Shown: one piece after another, positions 1-36,329 of the stretch
How positions within the stretch are numbered: the first letter of the stretch is position 1
Layout of the letters: every line of letters starts with the position of its first letter
IMG/VR virus record: IMGVR_UViG_2737471834_000007
DNA: 36,329 nt
Direction: 5' to 3' (one strand)
Origin: a virus
Lineage: Duplodnaviria; Heunggongvirae; Uroviricota; Caudoviricetes
Program-made: the position numbers and the translations under genes
The notes under the pieces: generated by a model
Seen by the model: only the letters and a program-made list of their open reading frames with translations
What the model was told of the DNA's origin: nothing
Database searches by the model: none

Positions 1-174
1 ATGGGGTTATTGAACAGGAATGATGTCGAAGTTGAATTACACCTTTGTACCAGAGACGATGAGCCTAAAACCGCAAAGCTCAAATTAAGAAACATCAAAG
101 ATGTTGATGCGTGTGAGCGCCTGATTGATAAACTGGCTGCTGTGGTAATAACGTCAAAGAAAAATGAAGAATAA
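1..174 (+). CDS. Small ORF (57 codons) beginning at the first base of the window; hypothetical, may be a complete small protein or the 3' end of a gene to the left
   Basis: Open frame from ATG at 1 to TAA at 172-174; followed by a weak hairpin near 207-238 and a strong one at 291-312. No recognisable motif. Confidence 0.3.
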   Translation: MGLLNRNDVEVELHLCTRDDEPKTAKLKLRNIKDVDACERLIDKLAAVVITSKKNEE

Positions 175-290
175 TTGATAAGCCAACCACCATCTCTTGA
201 AATAAAAAGCCCACGATTAATCTTGTGGACTTTTTGCATTCAGGCTTGCGAGATAGGGTGCCTTATCGACCTTAACCCTGGCAACCGATT

Positions 291-321
291 GACGGGGGAT
301 TGCTCCCCCGTCGCGGTTTTC
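291..321. terminator. Stem-loop GACGGGGGA-TTGC-TCCCCCGTC followed by a T-run on the + strand; also lies directly 3' of the hok-like ORF on the - strand
   Basis: Perfect 9-bp inverted repeat at 291-299/304-312, then GCGGTTTTCTT. Confidence 0.45.
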
Positions 322-462
322 TTACTGTTTACATTGTAAGAACGCCGCAAACTCCGCACCCCAGAAGCTCATCCGTATTTCACACAGCGAACCGTGCAAC
401 ATCCAGATGATAAGGATGACCGTCGCGCAGAACGTGATGGCCGTAAGCGATTTTTGCGACAT
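322..462 (-). CDS. Hok/Gef-family type I toxin (46 aa small membrane peptide), missing from the ORF track because it is under 60 aa
   Basis: Translation MSQKSLTAITFCATVILIIWMLHGSLCEIRMSFWGAEFAAFLQCKQ: hydrophobic N-terminus, SLCEI motif and E-x-AAFL-x-CK tail resemble E. coli HokA as recalled from memory. AAGGAG lies 8 nt upstream of the ATG at 462; stop TAA at 322-324. Confidence 0.6.
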   Translation of the reverse strand: MSQKSLTAITFCATVILIIWMLHGSLCEIRMSFWGAEFAAFLQCKQ

Positions 463-482
463 AGCGCTTGCTCCTTTTTCAT
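369..482 (-). CDS. mok-like overlapping reading frame (37 codons) starting 20 nt upstream of the hok-like start
   Basis: ATG at 482 in a different frame from the hok-like ORF, ending inside it, as in hok/mok loci; no SD (preceded by CCTCC). Speculative. Confidence 0.25.
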   Translation of the reverse strand: MKKEQALCRKNRLRPSRSARRSSLSSGCCTVRCVKYG

Positions 483-727
483 GGAGGCGCTAACCTGTCA
501 CTTGCTAGGTAGACGGGATAGGGCCTCGGTTAAACAAAAGTGTTTTCCGGGGCCTTTCCACATCCGGCCTTCTGGTTTACCCTCCGACCATCAGCCGAAA
601 GGCACCCGCGTGTAATGTACTGATTTCATATTGTATGTGCAATGCTCGTCACATTTTTTAAATACGTGTAAAACGTAATTGCGCAAGAAAATGTAGTTTT
701 TATTCTGCTGATTTCAGCGTAGAGAAT

Positions 728-1108
728 TTATGAGTTCTGAAATTCTTCTGCACGCCTTTCCAGTTCAGCCATGAAAGATGTTCTGGCTTTTTCGTGAGCA
801 TCGGGGGCCATGATGCTGATGATTTGTATATTGTTATAATCCATCCAGTGCCTGGTATAAACCAGATAGATATTTGAAGTTCTGTCTATCTGGGCCTTGC
901 TTTTCTTCCATGGTGGTTCCGATGGTAGTCTTATGTGTAATTTATATACAAACGAACCACATAGTCTTGCGTTATCTTCCCACTGTCCTTCATTGCCGAA
1001 TCTGTCAGGGAGAACGCCGGTATTTAACCAGTTCTCCAGAGCTTTTCCGTAAATTTTTGCAATATCCTGGTATTCAACATCTTTATGAATACTTACTTTG
1101 CTCGCCAT
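728..1108 (-). CDS. Hypothetical cytoplasmic protein (126 aa), second gene of a two-gene cargo operon
   Basis: Start ATG overlaps the upstream stop by 1 nt (TGATG). No signal peptide. A YKLHIRL...IYLVYTRHW...IQIISI stretch is faintly RelE/ParE-like but not convincing. Confidence 0.5.
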   Translation of the reverse strand: MASKVSIHKDVEYQDIAKIYGKALENWLNTGVLPDRFGNEGQWEDNARLCGSFVYKLHIRLPSEPPWKKSKAQIDRTSNIYLVYTRHWMDYNNIQIISIMAPDAHEKARTSFMAELERRAEEFQNS

Positions 1109-1734
1109 CAGGAAAACTCCGGAGCCGGGAGTCCCATATTTTTATGCTCGGCAATAATCATTGTTTTCACATTTTCGTCAGACAGCGTATTGCCCAGACT
1201 GGTAGTTTTTTCAGGTGCAGTGCTTCGCTCGATGGCGTTGATGGTATCACGAACGATAAATTCACCCTGCGCAATTGCCCGACCAAAACGAACCAGTTTA
1301 TTGCGATAGGCGATTCTTTGCTCAAGACTGTCCGGATACATTTTTGCCAGGTTATCCGGGGCCATTACAATCCTGACAGCCTCTTTAACACGGGTGTGCT
1401 GCCTGAGTGACTCTTCGCATATTTTCGTTATTTTTGCTATGTTGTCAGTAAACAGCGCTCCTTTGCCTCTGTTCTGACGCTCTTCAATGACGGCATTGAG
1501 TGCAGCGCGCATGTTGTTATTCAGCCCGTTAATATATTCAATAGCTTCTTCAAGAGGCAGAAACACCTGGCCGTCATGATGCTCAAATGTAAGCATTGAA
1601 ACTACTCTGGCGTGCGTCCCGGATTCAATAACTGTTGTTGGTAGTATCGTGCTTTTAGCTGGCACCGGAGCCAGTGATGCTGTCAGAGCTGCAGCAATGG
1701 CAGCAATGGCAGCAGACTTTGATTTTTGTTTCAT
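1108..1734 (-). CDS. Predicted secreted/periplasmic protein (208 aa from the ATG at 1734; the track ORF starts at GTG 1746), first gene of the cargo operon
   Basis: N-terminus MKQKSKSAAIAAIAAALTASLAPVPAKS looks like a Sec signal peptide; GGAG 7 nt upstream of the ATG at 1734. No catalytic motif recognised. Confidence 0.55.
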   Translation of the reverse strand: MKQKSKSAAIAAIAAALTASLAPVPAKSTILPTTVIESGTHARVVSMLTFEHHDGQVFLPLEEAIEYINGLNNNMRAALNAVIEERQNRGKGALFTDNIAKITKICEESLRQHTRVKEAVRIVMAPDNLAKMYPDSLEQRIAYRNKLVRFGRAIAQGEFIVRDTINAIERSTAPEKTTSLGNTLSDENVKTMIIAEHKNMGLPAPEFS

Positions 1735-2215
1735 AATGCACTCCACAGGTTGATGTGTTCAGCATATCGCAAATAGCAACTTGCATAAAGAAACGCCACA
1801 TCGGCATCGATCGTTTTACGCGTTTTTTTTCTTGTTGTGATCCTTTTTTCAGTTTTATTTTACCCGTTAATTTTGCGCAGGCCGCGCCGTGTCTGGCTTC
1901 TTTGTCTGATGGTTGTTTGATGCGATCCCTTCGTGATCGTTTTTCGTCTCACGTAAAGTATGAAAACTCTTTTAATATCATGCTGTTTTATTGCTCCAGC
2001 CATTTGTGCGATCGAAAAAATCTCTCTTAAAATTGCAAAAAATTTCAAAGTGTGAAATTTCAGAACTTCGCTTTTCCCCCAGTTACTGCGCTGGCTGGCG
2101 GTCATTTTTGCACGACAGAAAACTGAAAAAGCGTTTCAACACAAAACCCGCGGGTTGGAGGGGGTAGCGCGGTTTACGTGACGTGACACTTTACGTCATG
2201 TCTGGCTGGTTATGT

Positions 2216-2241
2216 GCAAAATTGCCGCCTCAGTGAGGCGC
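2216..2241 (-). terminator. Candidate intrinsic terminator ending the long late tail operon (short stem plus AAUUUU on the - strand)
   Basis: On the - strand: CGCCTCA-C-TGAGGCG stem followed by GCAATTTTG, about 85 nt after the spike gene stop. Confidence 0.35.
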
Positions 2242-2325: not shown

Positions 2326-4065
2326 TCAGGCGATAAGGTCGCGGTATTTTTCCCGCAGGGAGGATGACTGTCTGGCATCACCGGTAAATTCACCACTGTT
2401 GGTGGGTGTGCCTGTGCCAGGATGTGCGTGTGTGGCAGTATGTGTTGCCAGTTGTTCAATGAGATCCAGAATATCAACGAACAACGTCATCAGGTTCAGG
2501 CTGTCGCCACCCTGTGAACCATTTCGGCCTATAAACAGGGTCGGCGCAGAGAGGGAAAGACCACCACTGGCGGTGGTGGTCTGTGTACCGCTGATGTTCT
2601 CTGTGATATTCCCGCTTACTGTGCTGTTAACATTACCGCCGATGGTTTCCTGCCTGTCAGCACTGATGCGGCGTATCTCTGCCTGTAATTCCGCAATAAG
2701 GCTGTTTGCTTTCATCCTGATATCACCGGTGGCCACAATACCGTAATCACCATCAGAACCATGGACGATCTGCCCTGCCATCAGTGAACTCGTCCCGAGT
2801 ACCGTGGTACTGTCTGTGGCCTGTACGGTTGTTGTGCGGGTTGTCGTCCGGCGGCTTTCCTGGTCGCTGGTTATGATTCGGTGTGCAGATTCTTCCCTGA
2901 TTTTCTGGTCCGTTTCCCGGTGCCATGTGCCGTCACGGGTAACCCTCTGAAATACTTCTGCACGCTGTTGCTGTAGCTGCTCGCCAGGCTGGATATCAGG
3001 AAGATTCAGTCCGGATGGGAGTATCTGCCTTATTACCGGTTTATCTGGCCGTCCTTCGATATGCGCGATTTCCACTATCGTTCCGGCTTCCGGATAAGAA
3101 AAACAACCGGCCTCATTTCCGGCCATGGGTACCGGAAGCGGCACAGCAGGATATACAGGCGTGTTGTTGCTATCGTTGCCGTTTTCGTCCAGTAACTGCA
3201 GGTCAACAGCATAACGTGGGCGAAAACTGTCTGCCACATCGCCAAGCGTCGTGGATTCTGTTGGCGAGATAACGCGGGCCAGTCTTGGGCGTAATGTTCC
3301 GTCAGCCAGCTCCGGAAACTGCGATTCTGTCTGACGGCGCAGAGGTGAGCTGGATACGACAGAACCATCCTGGCGAAACCTGTCCCATGTCAGTGTCATG
3401 GTTTCATTATGAATGGCCACACGCGTGATCCGTCCTGCAGGAAGGTTAACGCCGGGGCGCAGAGTCTCTATCAACATGATATCCATACTGTTGCCGGCGC
3501 TGTGCCCCAGTGCATATTCATCAGGAATTTCCGGGATGGTCAGCGATGCAAAGCGTGAGTCACTGGCGCTGCCAACGAATACAGAACCATCCGGCATGGG
3601 ATGCCAGACGTAATCCTGAATGCTGAATATCCTGCCAAGATGATCAAGCAGGCGGGTACCGCTTCCGCTGTGAGTGACGCAGGGTACTGGTGTGGATACA
3701 TAGGCAGATGACGCGGTAATAAACACGATACCGCTCTTTTTTCCGAGATCATCAAGAACATCACGCAGAGTCGGGTGCTGGATGACACACGGAAAGCTGA
3801 AATCCAGTACCGCGGCAGCTTCCCTGATGAACAGACGGCGGGCGCCGTTTTCTGCCGGTTGATCGCGCTCAACGTAACCTGAGAAATAACGCCAGGCCTG
3901 GCCATCACGCCCAAAATCAATCTGAATCATGGCACCGGCCAGCGTGCTGCGCTGATTCGGCAGGGTGACAAAACCTCTTCCTGATGCGTTCAGTGACAGG
4001 ACCAGACTGATGTCTGTTATTTCTGTCTGTTTACCGTTTACCATGCATCTCTGAATAATTTTCAT
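2326..4065 (-). CDS. Baseplate central spike protein (gpV/VgrG-like C-terminal half with a ~330 aa N-terminal extension)
   Basis: AGTIVEIAHIEGRPDKPVIRQILPSG resembles the gpV OB-fold motif; C-terminal ATHTATHAHPGTG (H-x-H) resembles the spike apex of P2 gpV as recalled from memory. Start overlaps the upstream stop. Confidence 0.5.
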   Translation of the reverse strand: MKIIQRCMVNGKQTEITDISLVLSLNASGRGFVTLPNQRSTLAGAMIQIDFGRDGQAWRYFSGYVERDQPAENGARRLFIREAAAVLDFSFPCVIQHPTLRDVLDDLGKKSGIVFITASSAYVSTPVPCVTHSGSGTRLLDHLGRIFSIQDYVWHPMPDGSVFVGSASDSRFASLTIPEIPDEYALGHSAGNSMDIMLIETLRPGVNLPAGRITRVAIHNETMTLTWDRFRQDGSVVSSSPLRRQTESQFPELADGTLRPRLARVISPTESTTLGDVADSFRPRYAVDLQLLDENGNDSNNTPVYPAVPLPVPMAGNEAGCFSYPEAGTIVEIAHIEGRPDKPVIRQILPSGLNLPDIQPGEQLQQQRAEVFQRVTRDGTWHRETDQKIREESAHRIITSDQESRRTTTRTTTVQATDSTTVLGTSSLMAGQIVHGSDGDYGIVATGDIRMKANSLIAELQAEIRRISADRQETIGGNVNSTVSGNITENISGTQTTTASGGLSLSAPTLFIGRNGSQGGDSLNLMTLFVDILDLIEQLATHTATHAHPGTGTPTNSGEFTGDARQSSSLREKYRDLIA

Positions 4066-4637: not shown

Positions 4638-5392
4638 TTCAGGGCACCTCTCAGCGCGGATAAATCCTCACCTGCAAAGAGCATAATAGTGGTCAGCACC
4701 CGGTCAGGGTGAGGAATGTTTTTTTTCATCATGATTGCGGCCTGCCTGGTATCACCGGAAAAACAGAAACTCCATACCGGGCATGCCCTGTTTTGCGAGT
4801 CCTGCTTTTCTCCGGTTAATCTGTCCATCAGGTTCTGGCGATCTTTTCTGAACTGTGCCAGCGCCTGATCCAGCCCGGAAAAGGACAGCGGAGGAGGGGA
4901 AACGGCTGTGCTGATCAGTTCAGTCTGTGCCAGACTCCTGGCTGTGCTGAGTGACAGGGTGGTGCTTTCCGGAAGTGTTGCCGCTACTTTTGCCGGGATC
5001 TGCATTTTGCTGACGGCCAGCGATAACTGGCTGGCGATCAGCCTGTTCATTCGCTTGATTTCCGGCAAAGGGAATACGTCGGCAAAACGTTTTGTCAGTG
5101 CAAGAAATTCTGAAGCTGAAGTGGCACTGAGCATCATTAGTACCATGTCGCAATCCCGGCTGCCCTCCAGTCTGTGCAGAATGGCATCAATGGCATTTTC
5201 CGGGCTGAGGTAAGCCCCTGAACGGGTGACGTTTCCCACACCTTCCGACCATGGATGGAGACAAAGTTGTGAGCAGTTGATATTCATTGCAGCAGGCTTA
5301 AGAAGACTGCTTTTCCATTCCGCTGGCTGCATATTCATACCATTTATTTCTGATGTGTTGTTGTTTTTTGATGTAATACACAAATTTAACAA
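4634..5392 (-). CDS. Hypothetical protein (up to 252 aa; true start uncertain, candidates at 5338, 5332 and 5287)
   Basis: Track ORF starts at TTG 5392; no candidate start has a clear SD. Stop overlaps the next gene start (ATGA). Confidence 0.4.
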   Translation of the reverse strand: MLNLCITSKNNNTSEINGMNMQPAEWKSSLLKPAAMNINCSQLCLHPWSEGVGNVTRSGAYLSPENAIDAILHRLEGSRDCDMVLMMLSATSASEFLALTKRFADVFPLPEIKRMNRLIASQLSLAVSKMQIPAKVAATLPESTTLSLSTARSLAQTELISTAVSPPPLSFSGLDQALAQFRKDRQNLMDRLTGEKQDSQNRACPVWSFCFSGDTRQAAIMMKKNIPHPDRVLTTIMLFAGEDLSALRGALK

Positions 5393-5905: not shown

Positions 5906-6508
5906 CATCCCCCTCCGGCCAGCCAACAGGATACGCACGAATATCCGGCAGTGCGGTCAACCCTGCCACTTCTTCTTTCATCCGGCGCTGGCGTTCATGG
6001 ATTTTAAACCCCTGCATCACCATCGCCGCATTCATCGCAGTATCCAGTTGTATCAGCTCTTCCGGCGTCAGAGTGACATCCTGATTATCCGCATCCGTCC
6101 AGAAAAAATGCTCAGGCAACAGCCCGTTTCCTGCCACCGCAACTACCGGTGTCAGTCTGGACTGTGAAGCCTTTCCGGCATCCCAGCGATGACCACTGAA
6201 TTCAAAAACAAAACTGCTGTTCTCCTGGCTGTCACGCCAGCGACTGATTTCACCGTATTTCTGATTTCTGGCCTTTTCCAGTATCTCCTCTGTCACCACA
6301 AACGGCGTGACCTCACCCCAGGCCCCTGATATCAGCCCTGACCAGAGCCTTAACCCGAATTCTGTCGGGTCTGAAGCTCTGGCAGTATAAGGTACATATA
6401 CCCGCTGACTGTCATCAGAACGGTCTGCCATGAACACCTCACAGGTAATGCTGCCGTCTTCATTAAAACGGGCATTGCGCACGTCCGCTTCTGAATTCCT
6501 GGTATCCA

Positions 6509-6509
<1 letters not shown>
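5898..6509 (-). CDS. Putative tail fibre assembly/chaperone protein for fibre 2 (203 aa)
   Basis: Immediately follows fibre gene 2 with a 1-nt TAATG overlap; position and size fit a fibre chaperone; ends in GWPEGDDE. Confidence 0.45.
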
Positions 6510-8077
<1,568 letters not shown>

Positions 8078-8635: not shown

Positions 8636-10189
8636 TTAACCGGATATGGTGCGCCATGCACCATTAATATAAATCTGTTTTGCTTTGTAATAGACACCGC
8701 CAATATTATCTGCAGAATGTGAGCCAGTTTCCTGAACGTTAATACCAGAAAGCACACAACCTGCCGGTGCACGGAATGTCCAGGAAATTTCATTACCACC
8801 TGGATTGTGAAAGGTTTCGTTTGTGTACTGTTCGTTCTGTACATAGCGGGCATCAGCTGCAGCCTGCGTCATTCCCGCTGAAATGGTGATATCCTTCGTA
8901 CCATCAAATGCAACACCATTTATTTTTCGTGCGTTCTGTAATTTTGTGGCGCTGCCGGCATTACCGGTTGTGTTCTGGTTGCCCTGGGTATTCACACCCG
9001 GGAGACTGATATCTCCTGAACCATCAAAACTGACGCCGCCGATTTTCCTGCTGTTTTTTAATTTTGTAGCCGTACCTGAATTGCCTGATATATCGGTGAT
9101 TGTAATATCTTCCGACAGTTCCTTACCGTTGACTTTCCTTGTTGACGGAACGCGACGTTTTGCCTCATCCATAGCGTTCTTTACGGCTTTGGGAGTGGCG
9201 GCACGATCTTCCCTGTCACTGTCTGTATCACTGCAATATTGCGCAAATCCCTTTTCGTCCAGCGTGGCGTCAGGGTGATTGCGTGAGCGCACGTGGGCTG
9301 CCAGTGCATCGCTGTTTTCTTCATCAGGTGTCTGTGGACGGACATCCTCAACATGACCGGCAGATAATACTGCCAGTGGTGCAACATAATGTCTGAATCC
9401 GTTATTATCGGTGTACTCTTCAGTTACCGGGCGCGTATTCATATTCCCGGCGTCTGGTTGTCTGGCAGTAAATACAAATACCGTTTTCCAGCAGCCTGAT
9501 ACATGTCCATGCCAGCTGGCATCAATCAGAATGATGTCATTTTCAGAGGCGGTAAGTGTGAAGGGCTCCGTTAACTGAACACGCAGGCCACCGATATAAG
9601 CCACACCGGCACTGATGGTAGCTGTGCTGTTAATGGCATCGTAACTGACATGCAGGCTGTTACCCAGACATGCGGCATCACCATAGTAATCAAAGGCCAG
9701 CAGACGACGCGATTCATCCATTCCTGTCAGTCTGGCAGTAAAATCAATCTGCCAGACGTCAGCGGTGACGTTTACCTGCATGGCTTCGGCTGCCCCTTCG
9801 AATTCCATGGCGAATGTGCGAATCAGGTTATTGCCCTGAATGCCATTGGCGGTCCTGATTTTCTGCTGTAGTGGTGTATGGGCAATCATACACAGTACAT
9901 GGCTTTCTTCGTGATACAGCCCAATCCAGTTATATTCAAAATCACCTGCGGTGGTGTCCAGAATCACGGAAAATGCAACCGTATCAGGTTCAAGCATGCC
10001 GAACTGTGTTACCGGAACGCGGCAGACAATATATTTTTCATCCGGCAGTTCTTCATCCACCGATATCGGTGCACTGATATCCATATCCGGAATGCAGGCA
10101 AAGATAAAAGTGTCCGGTCTGGCCGGTTCGTTGCTGATAAGCTGGTTTGCACACCAGTGCTCATATTGTCGCGTAATTACCGTGCTCAT
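8636..10189 (-). CDS. Tail fibre protein 1 (517 aa)
   Basis: Collar motif SRNHPDATLDEKGFAQ...AATPKAVKNAMDEA matches the P2 gpH/lambda Stf-type conserved region as recalled from memory; two ~36-aa fibre repeats follow; N-terminus shared with fibre 2. Confidence 0.7.
   Translation of the reverse strand: MSTVITRQYEHWCANQLISNEPARPDTFIFACIPDMDISAPISVDEELPDEKYIVCRVPVTQFGMLEPDTVAFSVILDTTAGDFEYNWIGLYHEESHVLCMIAHTPLQQKIRTANGIQGNNLIRTFAMEFEGAAEAMQVNVTADVWQIDFTARLTGMDESRRLLAFDYYGDAACLGNSLHVSYDAINSTATISAGVAYIGGLRVQLTEPFTLTASENDIILIDASWHGHVSGCWKTVFVFTARQPDAGNMNTRPVTEEYTDNNGFRHYVAPLAVLSAGHVEDVRPQTPDEENSDALAAHVRSRNHPDATLDEKGFAQYCSDTDSDREDRAATPKAVKNAMDEAKRRVPSTRKVNGKELSEDITITDISGNSGTATKLKNSRKIGGVSFDGSGDISLPGVNTQGNQNTTGNAGSATKLQNARKINGVAFDGTKDITISAGMTQAAADARYVQNEQYTNETFHNPGGNEISWTFRAPAGCVLSGINVQETGSHSADNIGGVYYKAKQIYINGAWRTISG
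8879..9109 (-). repeat. Tandem ~36-aa tail fibre repeat (two copies) in fibre 1
   Basis: SGNSGTATKLKNSRKIGGVSFDGSGDISLP versus TGNAGSATKLQNARKINGVAFDGTKDITIS. Confidence 0.6.
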
Positions 10190-28786: not shown

Positions 28787-29196
28787 TCCCCGGCAGTTGC
28801 CCGTTGAAACGCGGCACGGTACAGCACAAGAAGGCGCCGGTATTCGTCAATAAAGCCTTCTGCCGTTTTAATTCCTTTCACTGCCACGCTGTGGGTTGTC
28901 ATGTCCAGTACGAGCGCCATTTCTGACGATGACCAGCTGATAACGCTGCTGTCGAGTCCGTTGATGTGGAACAGGCCCAGATTCAGGCTGTGATTCAGGT
29001 CTCTGACGTCAACACGGTAACGGTCATCAACGGTGAAGGAGAAATCACCGGATGTGGCGGCGCTGCTGGCTGCCTGTTTACAGGCGAGGCGGTAATAGTC
29101 GTGCAGATCATTGAGACGGGAAGCGAGGCGTGGATCCACCGCCCACATCCAGTTAAAAAAATCCTGAATATCTGAAAGTCCCTTAACGTTCTTCAT
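28783..29196 (-). CDS. Hypothetical early protein (137 aa)
   Basis: CGGAGG SD; ATGA overlap with the replication gene start. Confidence 0.5.
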   Translation of the reverse strand: MKNVKGLSDIQDFFNWMWAVDPRLASRLNDLHDYYRLACKQAASSAATSGDFSFTVDDRYRVDVRDLNHSLNLGLFHINGLDSSVISWSSSEMALVLDMTTHSVAVKGIKTAEGFIDEYRRLLVLYRAAFQRATAGE

Positions 29197-29264
29197 GTGA
29201 ACCTCCGGTAACAGACGTGCGGAAGCCTCCCGCGCACGGGTGCGGGATGGCTTCAGGATATTGA

Positions 29265-29492
29265 TTAGTGGTGGTATTGCTGGCTGATGAGGTCCTGCAG
29301 CTCCGCGAGATCATCCGCCAGGTAGCTGAAGACTGCCGCGTAATACCCGGCAGCGATACCGCCGTTAAGCCGATGTAATACGTTTGACTGCATGATGAAG
29401 GCGACAGATGCAGCCCGATGGAGTCTGCGGTTGATTTCGGTGCGGATGTGAAGGCGCTCAGCGCGGGCGCGCTGTTGTTTGCGGTTTGCCAT
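29265..29492 (-). CDS. Hypothetical small basic protein (75 aa)
   Basis: GAAGAGG SD upstream of the ATG; Arg-rich N-terminus. Confidence 0.45.
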   Translation of the reverse strand: MANRKQQRARAERLHIRTEINRRLHRAASVAFIMQSNVLHRLNGGIAAGYYAAVFSYLADDLAELQDLISQQYHH

Positions 29493-29780
29493 GGTATGGC
29501 CTCTTCGTTTGTAAGTTTGGGAAACTCACCATCCAGAGGTTCCAAGCTCGGGGTGGCGAGACGTACGGGGTTGGAACTACCGGAAAACGAAGAAACCGGC
29601 CCGACCAGAGTCGGCCCCGTACGCCCCGCCATAATTTGGGTGCGAAAACGGCGTGGCGATACGGTACGCACAAAAAAACCGCTGGCGCGGCTGTGCGCTT
29701 CGTTTGTCGGCGGGGTTCCAATCCCGGCACCCGTTTTATGAGGTGCAGCGGGAATGTAACCCGACAGATTGCGGCATGGC

Positions 29781-29840
29781 AAGCGGTTTTTTTGTGTGTG
29801 CATGATGATCACTCAGTCCGGTAACAGTTCACGGAGCACG
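29781..29840. repeat. Direct repeat copy A (~57-60 bp) at the 3' end of the methyltransferase gene
   Basis: About 85% identical to 30876-30932 by hand alignment (AAGCGGTTTTT..GTGTGTGCATG...ACTCAGTCCGGTA.CAGTTC). Confidence 0.6.
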
Positions 29841-34724: not shown

Positions 34725-34790
34725 CGGTCCATCTGGCCTTTATTTCTCAAAATTGTGATCAAGATGATGTTTTCATTGGGGGGCTTCCTT

Positions 34791-35801
34791 ATGTCGATTA
34801 AGAAGCTCGCTGATGGCAAATACTGTGTGGACGTGCGGCCTGCTGGATCTGAAGGAAGAAGATTTCGGCGGCGATTTCCTACCCGTGGTGAAGCGGCGAT
34901 GTATGAACGCCATGTTCTGACGCATTATCACGATAAGGACTGGGTAGAAAAACCCATTGAACGTAAAGCGTTAAGCGATCTTCTGGAACTGTGGTGGGTG
35001 TACCACGGTAAGAATCATCGTTATGGCGCGATGAATCGGGTCAGAATTGAAGCGGTTCTTCGTGATATGCGAGAGCTTGGTATTAACAGAAGTGACCATT
35101 TAACCCGAAAAAATATTATCAGATATCGCCTTGAATTAATGAATCGTGGAATTAAGCAGTCAACGGTAAATCGTTATTGCGCAATGATGAGCGGTTTCTT
35201 TGAAAAGCTGATTGATGTTGAAGAGTTTGTGGGTGATAACCCATTTCACGAGATACGCAAGCTAACAATTAATCAGCCTGAAATGGCTTATCTTGCACAT
35301 GATGATATTCCCAGGCTAACCGCGCTTTTATCTGGCGATAATCTTAAGGCTGTATTGTTAAGCCTGGCCACTGGCGGTCGTTGGGGTGAAGTTGCCAATA
35401 TTAAAGGTGAACACATAATTGGTGGGAAGGTTATTTTCATGGAGACAAAGAATGGATCTAGGCGGGTTATTCCTATAGCTAAAGATCTTGAATCTCTGAT
35501 TAAAGTAAAGGCGACGGGAAGATTAATAAAACCCAGTTATGCAACTGTCAGGAGTGCGATAAGGAGTGTTCGACCTGATTTGCCAGTCGGTCAGTCTGTG
35601 CATGTTTTACGACACACATTTGCAACTCATTTTATGATTAATGGGGGGAATATTATTACCCTGCAGCGTATTTTAGGACATAGCACAATCCAGCAAACAA
35701 TGACCTATGCGCACTTTGCACCTGATTATCTCCAGGATGCGGTAAGGTTCAATCCTGTCGCGGAGTTGTCCAGATATTGTCCACAAATAGGGACTAAATA
35801 G
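34791..35801 (+). CDS. int: Tyrosine integrase, P2 Int-like (336 aa from the ATG at 34791; track ORF starts at GTG 34755)
   Basis: MSIKKLADGKYCVDVRP matches the P2 Int N-terminus (MAIKKLDDGRYEVDIRP) as recalled from memory; catalytic HVLRHTFATHFMINGG and LGHSTIQQTMTYAHFAPDYLQDA motifs. Confidence 0.85.
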   Translation: MSIKKLADGKYCVDVRPAGSEGRRFRRRFPTRGEAAMYERHVLTHYHDKDWVEKPIERKALSDLLELWWVYHGKNHRYGAMNRVRIEAVLRDMRELGINRSDHLTRKNIIRYRLELMNRGIKQSTVNRYCAMMSGFFEKLIDVEEFVGDNPFHEIRKLTINQPEMAYLAHDDIPRLTALLSGDNLKAVLLSLATGGRWGEVANIKGEHIIGGKVIFMETKNGSRRVIPIAKDLESLIKVKATGRLIKPSYATVRSAIRSVRPDLPVGQSVHVLRHTFATHFMINGGNIITLQRILGHSTIQQTMTYAHFAPDYLQDAVRFNPVAELSRYCPQIGTK

Positions 35802-36063: not shown

Positions 36064-36077
36064 TTAAGGAGGTGCAG

Positions 36078-36329
36078 ATGCGTATTACCATAAAAAGATG
36101 GGGGAACAGTGCAGGTATGGTCATTCCCAATATCGTAATGAAAGAACTTAACTTACAGCCGGGGCAGAGCGTGGAAGCGCAGGTGAGCAACAACCAACTG
36201 ATTCTGACACCCATCTCCAGGCGCTACTCGCTTGATGAACTGCTGGCACAGTGTGACATGAACGCCGCGGAACTTAGCGAGCAGGATGTCTGGGGTAAAT
36301 CCACCCCTGCGGGTGACGAAATATGGTAA
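36078..36329 (+). CDS. chpS: ChpS (ChpBI) antitoxin of the chpSB toxin-antitoxin pair (host gene); the chpB start codon overlaps its stop at 36324
   Basis: MRITIKRWGNSAGMVIPNIVMKELNLQPGQ...GDEIW is the MazE-type AbrB-fold antitoxin ChpS; AAGGAGG SD; terminal ATGGTAA gives the overlapping chpB start. Confidence 0.85.
   Translation: MRITIKRWGNSAGMVIPNIVMKELNLQPGQSVEAQVSNNQLILTPISRRYSLDELLAQCDMNAAELSEQDVWGKSTPAGDEIW

Follow-up and report, generated by a model that had tools for sequence, protein, structure and literature searches.

What do the two small genes beyond the tail operon of an Escherichia coli prophage encode, and do their products act together? The question is raised by the IMG/VR virus record IMGVR_UViG_2737471834_000007, of which the whole stretch of 36,329 nucleotides (the window) was analysed. 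The region spanning 728-1746 contains two open reading frames (ORFs) on the minus strand, gene A and then gene B, which a first-pass annotation had described as uncharacterised cargo, namely a secreted protein with a coupled cytoplasmic partner. We assign the product of B confidently to the YafO toxin family, and with moderate confidence we read A-B as a toxin-antitoxin cassette of a non-canonical, type II-like kind, which a P2/HP1-hybrid E. coli prophage carries as a moron at its tail end. The antitoxin role of A is inferred from the architecture of the pair, its strict co-occurrence, its decay patterns and its homologues lacking a signal-like N-terminus.

YafO is among the less understood mRNA-interferase toxins and, to our knowledge, only one type of partner, YafN, is known for it. 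In the prophages and phages examined here, the YafO-family toxins are paired not with YafN but with an undescribed helical family of about 190-210 residues. The toxin family and the operon logic were already known; the partner family replacing YafN, with a signal-like N-terminus in one clade, is new.

Two coupled genes in AT-richer DNA

In the ORF list of the window, gene A runs 1108..1746 from a GTG codon, and 39 of 39 homologous clusters begin at the equivalent of the ATG at 1734. Because the homologues all start there and a ribosome-binding GGAG lies seven bases upstream, the true start is assigned to this ATG, giving a product of 208 amino acids (aa) that begins MKQKSKS. The operon span proposed earlier was consequently 12 nt too long at this end. 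The ratio of nonsynonymous to synonymous substitution rates (dN/dS) was 0.1-0.2 for A and 0.01-0.05 for B, so both are judged to be real genes under purifying selection, B more strongly, and not chance ORFs. A toxin more conserved than its partner is usual for toxin-antitoxin pairs.

Several other features recognised in the first-pass annotation were borne out. The two genes share one nucleotide, base 1108, within a TGATG stop/start overlap, and they lie in AT-richer DNA, with a GC content of 0.43-0.45 across 501-2000 vs 0.54-0.55 across 2501-4000 in the adjacent tail genes. The position is that of a moron, at the distal end of the late region with tail genes adjoining and a type I toxin gene of the Hok type nearby (Table 1).

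Gene B specifies a YafO-family toxin

Profile and structure-based homology searches of both proteins, as proposed at the outset, gave an assignment for B and none for A in sequence or fold databases. The B protein matched Pfam PF13957 (YafO_toxin) with an E value of 1.1e-27 and 96.5 bits (cut-off 25) over profile positions 2-101 of 101, and it showed 32% identity to E. coli K-12 YafO (BLASTP, E 7e-10). Residues G38, S52, H58, I59, R76, L82, V83, P102, H105, A120, E121 and F123 were invariant in 22 relatives and K-12 YafO. Because the score of B against the NCBIfam YafO equivalog PRK09885 was 45 bits, below the cut-off of 153, B belongs to a distant YafO subfamily and is not the YafO orthologue. 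In existing annotation by the Prokaryotic Genome Annotation Pipeline (PGAP), B bears the name 'type II toxin-antitoxin system YafO family toxin'. The earlier description of the two genes as uncharacterised was therefore right for A and wrong for B.

The AlphaFold 2 model of B has an alpha/beta fold with a mean predicted local distance difference test score (pLDDT) of 90.6. It gave no significant fold match in the PDB, where HigB2 and HigB were among the best at non-significant template modelling (TM) scores of 0.33-0.50 (HigB2 0.4-0.5), and no solved structure for B or YafO was detectable by sequence search. YafO has been described as a RelE-related, translation-dependent mRNA interferase that cleaves only translated mRNA, is counteracted by YafN and depends on Lon for its induction (PMC2814082). 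By family membership B is the probable toxic component of the pair, and its earlier description as a neutral cytoplasmic partner of a secreted effector is abandoned. Among the homologues of B, the Yersinia enterocolitica protein (P0068; L024 1994-2419) reaches 141 aa through an in-frame tandem duplication, EQWNNGTMEQWNNGTMEQWKNG, located in the loop that follows the first helix.

Gene A belongs to an apparently mis-annotated helical family

The A protein is identical to WP_047668010.1, recorded as 'hypothetical protein [Escherichia coli]'. It had no match in Pfam, NCBIfam, PHROGs or PADLOC and none among PDB sequences, and its model had no match among PDB and BFVD folds (Foldseek). Its relatives are few, with 39 clusters found by word-indexed search and only 32 hits when 1.84 billion representative proteins were searched exhaustively with a profile, and the named sources are Enterobacterales and Vibrio parahaemolyticus. 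In the AlphaFold 2 model (pLDDT 72), residues 3-18 form a helix and 21-25 a short strand. Residues 27-54 are disordered, 61-171 form a helical bundle, and a disordered linker (176-183) leads to a C-terminal helix at 186-199.

Many relatives of A are named 'iron-sulfur cluster assembly scaffold protein SufA' in NCBI and UniRef (e.g. WP_069934482.1; P0003-P0032), and one cluster of B homologues bears the same name. No Pfam or NCBIfam match of A to a SufA/IscA scaffold was seen at E <= 1, and the label appears to be a propagated mis-annotation. Relationship to YafN was likewise rejected, as A had no PF02604 match and hhalign of its profile against YafN gave a probability of 0.5%. We infer from these searches that A represents a previously undescribed helical family of about 190-210 residues. 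Defining it would correct a widespread mis-annotation and supply a new antitoxin model for toxin-antitoxin finders.

The pair is conserved and moves as a unit

Gene A directly precedes B in 18 of the 18 loci first scanned that contain both proteins, and all loci examined have an A-like gene next to B, even where identity falls to 22-25% for A and 52% for B. The conservation of the pair at this position in related prophages, which the first-pass annotation had asked about, was found in E. coli and Salmonella. The Salmonella form is very common, with 3,946 indexed blocks in the assembly collection, and in P2-like E. coli prophages the pair lies between gpD and ogr. Divergent pairs in Yersinia, Salmonella and a metagenome are flanked by housekeeping genes, with no phage genes in the stretch shown. 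The limits of the mobile cassette were taken from megablast, in which the query aligned over 126-1235 or 126-1301 of window 600-1900. Among 5,426 complete E. coli genomes, 23 carry the cassette at about 92.5% nucleotide identity, in two or more prophage contexts. It is also present on one plasmid, and none of 50,697 sequenced phage records contains it. Strict co-occurrence and mobility as a unit were thus found in two prophage types and at sites where the stretch shown lacks phage genes.

These observations bear on the reading in which A is an unrelated secreted moron product, merely co-transcribed with an orphan or inactive YafO gene. Such a reading would agree with the lack of a family assignment for A and of direct interaction evidence. 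It is very improbable given that an A-like gene stands beside B at all examined loci and in distant phage versions, that the translational coupling is conserved, and that B is under strong purifying selection.

Two observations concern the sites that the cassette occupies. In L033, which holds a complete cassette in the P2-like context, 15-bp direct repeats, AAACAGAGTGAGCAA, occur at about 4895-4915 and about 6020-6040, that is, at the end of gpD and just past B; they suggest either an insertion that duplicated the 3' end of gpD or a route for precise loss. In the E. coli relatives L001 and L002 (4059-5561), the cassette is followed by a gene for a 489-aa 'ATP-dependent nuclease', a DNA methyltransferase fragment and host raiA, and this prophage end seems to collect defence-type cargo.

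Decay of the pair

In some P2-like prophages, one deletion took the last ~30 residues of A with nearly all of B, and a second took the A promoter with the first ~35 codons. What is left is an A core of 141-150 aa between gpD and ogr, which begins at an ATG overlapping the gpD stop (ATGA) and lacks the C-terminal motif described below. Such remnants occur in E. coli P2-like prophages at L029 5001-5453 and L032 1404-1829; the two copies differ by a synonymous divergence (dS) of 0.54 with dN/dS ~0.19, where the flanking gpD and ogr show dS of only 0.09-0.14. Instead of being a dead fossil, the remnant may be a gene that is maintained, for example as an anti-addiction factor. In Serratia symbiotica, stops and frameshifts interrupt A, and the B ORF is open. 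This locus was considered as a case of an intact B beside a broken A, which would speak against an antitoxin role, and was set aside because B has lost the conserved FG and His105, and both genes are decaying. The decay patterns fit a toxin-antidote logic.

A C-terminal motif links A to partners of phage toxins

The extreme C-terminus of A carries a family-wide motif, V-K-x-x-I-x-x-E-H-x-x-L-G-L-x-x-P-x-F, in which E196 and H197 are invariant and I193, L200, G201, L202 and P205 nearly so, down to 22% identity. The phages CUS-3 and HK639 and Flyfo siphovirus Tbat2_3 carry YafO-like proteins with 25-32% identity to B. These three proteins score above the cut-off for PF13957, and each is directly preceded by an unannotated gene of 190-199 aa. 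The pairs lie at L037 1917-2920 (CUS-3), L038 1803-2821 (HK639) and L039 1921-2911 (Tbat2_3); those of HK639 and Tbat2_3 are in the tail-gene region downstream of the tape-measure gene, and that of CUS-3 is in the mnt/ant region.

The Tbat-type partner family (13 sequences) aligned with the A family over 138 columns with an hhalign probability of 89.7% and E 1.9e-6, A residues 58-207 pairing with Tbat-type residues 40-189 and the alignment reaching the very C-terminus. The Tbat-type partner ends in the corresponding motif SH..LG...P.W, and the terminal motif is also present in the CUS-3 partner; for the HK639 partner no similarity to A was demonstrable. These phage partners have no positively charged n-region and no long hydrophobic core. 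From these comparisons, the helical body with the C-terminal motif is the ancestral YafO partner, and only the clade represented in the window has the signal-like N-terminus.

The signal-like N-terminus of A

The first-pass annotation had seen a clear signal peptide in A. Our call rests on a heuristic of our own, a K/R-rich n-region, a hydrophobic core and small residues at -3/-1, by which A has the features expected of a Sec signal peptidase I substrate (charged n-region, h-region of about 7-15 residues, small residues at -3/-1). The n-region MKQKSK has a charge of +3, the core SAAIAAIAAALTASL a best 10-residue Kyte-Doolittle mean of 2.54, and the putative site is V-P-A↓K. Similar features occur in 28 of 33 family members, with n-regions of +1 to +5, 14-22 uncharged hydrophobic residues and V-P-A before a polar residue. 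The signal peptide is accordingly retained as likely and putative, no longer as clear.

Across the family the n- and h-regions differ in sequence and keep the same character, as is known for real signal peptides. The N-terminus contains a near-invariant motif, ASLAPVPA(K/Q)S. The invariant block is encoded by 3-4 different codons per position across loci; since the synonymous codons vary, the block is conserved as protein, and a DNA-level cause such as a regulatory RNA or operator is rejected. Codons 1-27 showed dN/dS of 0.03-0.12 in divergent pairs. An internal start giving an A isoform without the signal was also considered and rejected, as no Met is conserved in residues 27-55. Three points advise caution: conservation of A-P-V-P-A-x-S goes far beyond the needs of signal-peptidase cleavage, the distant members P0091, P0100 and P0110 have acidic or polar residues inside the 'core', and AlphaFold 2 pairs the LAPVP strand with an invariant FLPL strand, at low confidence. 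Taken together, we consider it moderately likely that A is truly a Sec substrate.

If A is exported, the pair could be read as a sensor-effector module of abortive infection, in which A acts in the periplasm or at the inner membrane, where it might exclude superinfecting phages or detect damage to the envelope or the injection of phage DNA, and B is a cytoplasmic effector governed by leftover cytoplasmic A precursor or by a trans-membrane signal. This agrees with the signal-like features of 28 of 33 members, whose n- and h-regions change in sequence but not in character, and with the prophage-end site, the adjoining Hok gene in the window and the 'ATP-dependent nuclease' gene in the E. coli relatives. 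We nevertheless hold it to be unlikely. A signal-like N-terminus is missing from the homologous partners of the YafO-like toxins in phages, so the partnership of A and B is not dependent on export; the toxin-less remnants lost the N-terminus and still show dN/dS ~0.19; and A offers no transmembrane segment for inward signalling, residues 7-25 being at about +5 kcal/mol on the Hessa scale (hand calculation).

The N-terminus together with the conserved extreme C-terminal peptide, at near-fixed spacing to the stop/start overlap, would also suit a SecM-like monitoring substrate, whose signal engages Sec and whose C-terminal peptide stalls the ribosome upon export failure, tying toxin translation to the state of the Sec machinery or to membrane potential. 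This seems most improbable, because the C-terminal motif is retained in homologues without a signal, the Salmonella form ends in LGLAV with an 11-nt gap before B, and stalling at the stop codon would leave the B start hidden under the ribosome instead of exposed. Furthermore, a 110-residue helical body under purifying selection would be needless for a mere leader.

Finally, the roles might be reversed in a type V-like manner, with exported A harmful and the RNase B limiting it by cutting their shared mRNA. GhoS/GhoT offers a parallel of an exported protein paired with an RNase, and the toxin-less remnants are also without the export signal. We regard this as scarcely credible, since B is homologous to a demonstrated toxin and retains its invariant residues, B is far more conserved than A, and A homologues without a signal could not work in the periplasm.

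Operon signals

The one-base overlap (TGATG or TAATG) is kept in 11 of 18 loci, most of the others having gaps of 2-12 nt, and B is probably translationally coupled to A through it. When the upstream regions of 13 loci were aligned, a block TTCTTTAT.C...CTTTG.G.TAT.CTG was conserved. It coincides with the promoter-like block of Table 1, which was not called by a strict consensus promoter scan, and its promoter function is accordingly putative.

The first-pass annotation had placed the cassette beyond the terminator of the tail operon. Two hairpins with U-runs do fall between the last tail gene (stop 2326) and the cassette, which makes the placement plausible, but a consensus terminator scan called no minus-strand terminator in this gap. 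A scan of the window with Rfam found no RNA family in or beside the cassette.

Table 1. Positions of the cassette, its signals and the neighbouring type I toxin gene in the window
Feature	Coordinates	Strand	Basis
Gene A, candidate antitoxin and partner, uncharacterised family, 208 aa	1108..1734	-	ORF, homologue starts, ribosome-binding site
Gene B, YafO-family toxin, 126 aa, predicted ribosome-dependent mRNA endonuclease	728..1108	-	PF13957
Putative Sec-signal-like N-terminus, codons 1-26 of A: MKQKSK / SAAIAAIAAALTASL / APVPA↓KS	1657..1734	-	heuristic scoring
C-terminal helix and tail of A, codons 186-208, V-K-x-M-I-x-A-E-H-K-x-L-G-L-x-x-P-x-F	1111..1179	-	proposed toxin-binding element
TGATG stop/start overlap; A stop and B start share base 1108	1106..1110	-	read from sequence
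Promoter-like block upstream of A: -35 TTTATG 1784-1789, 17-bp spacer, -10 TATGCT 1761-1766	1760..1792	-	
Two hairpins with U-runs, candidate late-operon terminators, 2226-2240 and 2138-2174	2138..2240	-	RNA fold z = -2.55
Extent of mobile cassette; lower end at B stop codon, upper limit 1834 or 1900 by context	725..1900	.	megablast
Hok/Gef type I toxin gene, 46 aa	322-462	-	PF01848, E 1.2e-6

Proposed mechanism and its weighing

The architecture of A-B, with partner first, toxin second and tightly coupled small co-directional genes, is that of a type II-like system. By homology to YafO, free B would act as a translation-dependent mRNA endonuclease that arrests protein synthesis. A would be its cognate neutralising partner, in place of the Phd/YefM-type antitoxin YafN, and would probably bind and block B through its C-terminal helix and tail (EH..LGL..P.F), a motif whose conservation across both partner families gives this indirect support. 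Translation of A first, with re-initiation of B at the TGATG, would keep A at or above the level of B. The cassette might stabilise the prophage by post-segregational arrest, as other prophage-borne toxin-antitoxin pairs do, or abort infection by other phages once host shut-off halts the synthesis of A, or do both.

More speculatively, the weakly hydrophobic, Ala-rich Sec-type N-terminus could make free A short-lived in the cytoplasm, either by slow export or by degradation of unexported precursor, and this lability would replace the Lon-sensitivity of classical antitoxins. The stronger proposal, that A is a real Sec substrate and the antitoxin is cleared by export rather than proteolysis, or equivalently that the pair reads out the state of Sec or the membrane potential, is in our view quite doubtful. 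Toxin release would then be tied to continued synthesis of A and to its export flux. We know of no described toxin-antitoxin type in which the antitoxin is cleared by export.

Several points weigh against the toxin-antitoxin interpretation. A had no helix-turn-helix, ribbon-helix-helix or AbrB family match and no fold match, and no palindromic operator was obvious in the conserved promoter block upstream of A; these two findings leave classical autoregulation by A unsupported without disproving it. PADLOC-DB v2 gave no match for A or B at E <= 1, and in the literature we found no description of the pair, of a YafO with a signal-bearing partner, or of YafO in P2 hotspots. The motif A-P-V-P-A-x-S is near-invariant down to 22% identity, beyond what a signal-peptidase site requires. 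Moreover, if the signal is real and cleaved, mature A would be periplasmic and unable to sequester a cytoplasmic toxin, so simple sequestration could not be the whole story.

The first-pass annotation had offered an exclusion, defence or virulence-type module or a novel effector/partner pair; a defence or addiction-type role is the most reasonable class. The secreted-effector and virulence readings find support only in the signal-like N-terminus, and its absence from the homologous partners in sequenced phages weakens them.

Comparison with known systems

The nearest described module is E. coli K-12 yafNO. Its toxin also belongs to PF13957, with the identity and common invariant residues given above, and it has the same order of partner first and toxin second with tight spacing. 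The partners differ: A is unrelated to the Phd/YefM-type YafN, has 208 aa vs 97 aa, is helical, has no recognisable DNA-binding domain and bears a signal-like N-terminus. The settings also differ, as yafNO lies in the dinB operon and the A-B cassette at a prophage end. The phage pairs ECRS218_0007/0008 of CUS-3, UIW10320/UIW10334 of Tbat2_3 and gp17/gp18 of HK639 are similar in being moron pairs whose partner gene overlaps or abuts that of a PF13957 toxin. Unlike in the window, their toxins are just 25-32% identical to B and their partners have no positively charged n-region or long hydrophobic core. No experimental characterisation of these three pairs was found.

RelBE and HigBA modules are related through the toxin, YafO being RelE-related and the B model weakly HigB2-like, whereas their antitoxin families differ. 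Protective partners with an N-terminal export signal are known from entericidin A/B and from the periplasmic immunity proteins of type VI effectors, where the toxin acts in the envelope. B, in contrast, is predicted to act on cytoplasmic ribosomes and has no signal. With P2 old, tin and fun(Z) and the P2/P4 defence hotspots the cassette shares the character of AT-richer accessory cargo that occupies a variable position in a P2-related prophage, but the published hotspot adjoins cos, whereas in P2-like E. coli prophages the A-B cassette lies between gpD and ogr. If the cassette protects against other phages, the gpD-ogr site or the tail end would be an extra slot for defence cargo in P2-related prophages. 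The pair is also tractable for asking whether an antitoxin bearing a signal peptide exists and what purpose the signal would serve.

Prophage setting

The window is a complete P2/HP1-hybrid E. coli prophage. It carries the integrase at 34755-35801, Cox, a GPA replication protein and a Dam methylase, and its late genes include those for the large terminase, a DUF2586 protein, the tape measure, the HP1_ORF34 baseplate protein and tail fibres. The upstream neighbour of the cassette is a 579-aa gene at 2326-4065, which comes after the HP1_ORF34 baseplate and tail-fibre genes.

The Hok/Gef gene lies ~265 nt downstream of the cassette, and window 1-610 is 84-93% identical to E. coli Hok loci; Rfam called no Sok or other RNA there. 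At the other end, host chpS, encoding the ChpS antitoxin of chpSB, spans 36077-36329 (+) with 97% identity to E. coli. Because chpS begins just past the integrase end, the prophage is inserted beside another toxin-antitoxin locus, chpSB. No att-type direct repeat of at least 12 bp was found between the two window ends, so the second att site probably lies outside the window.

In the early region, Rfam matches above the gathering score were obtained for the C4 antisense RNA at 29549-29636 (-, 83 bits) and for isrK at 29672-29746 (-, 68 bits). They stand side by side, overlap the ORF 29183-29812 and lie between the GPA replication and Dam methylase genes, and the pair looks like a P1/P7-style antisense immunity element, as judged by these matches, within a P2-type early region. 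There are two tail-fibre genes, at 6509-8077 (-) and 8636-10189 (-). One of them includes a region of collagen triple-helix repeats (PF01391), and a DUF4376 protein comes after it; the two genes hint at alternative or duplicated host-range modules.

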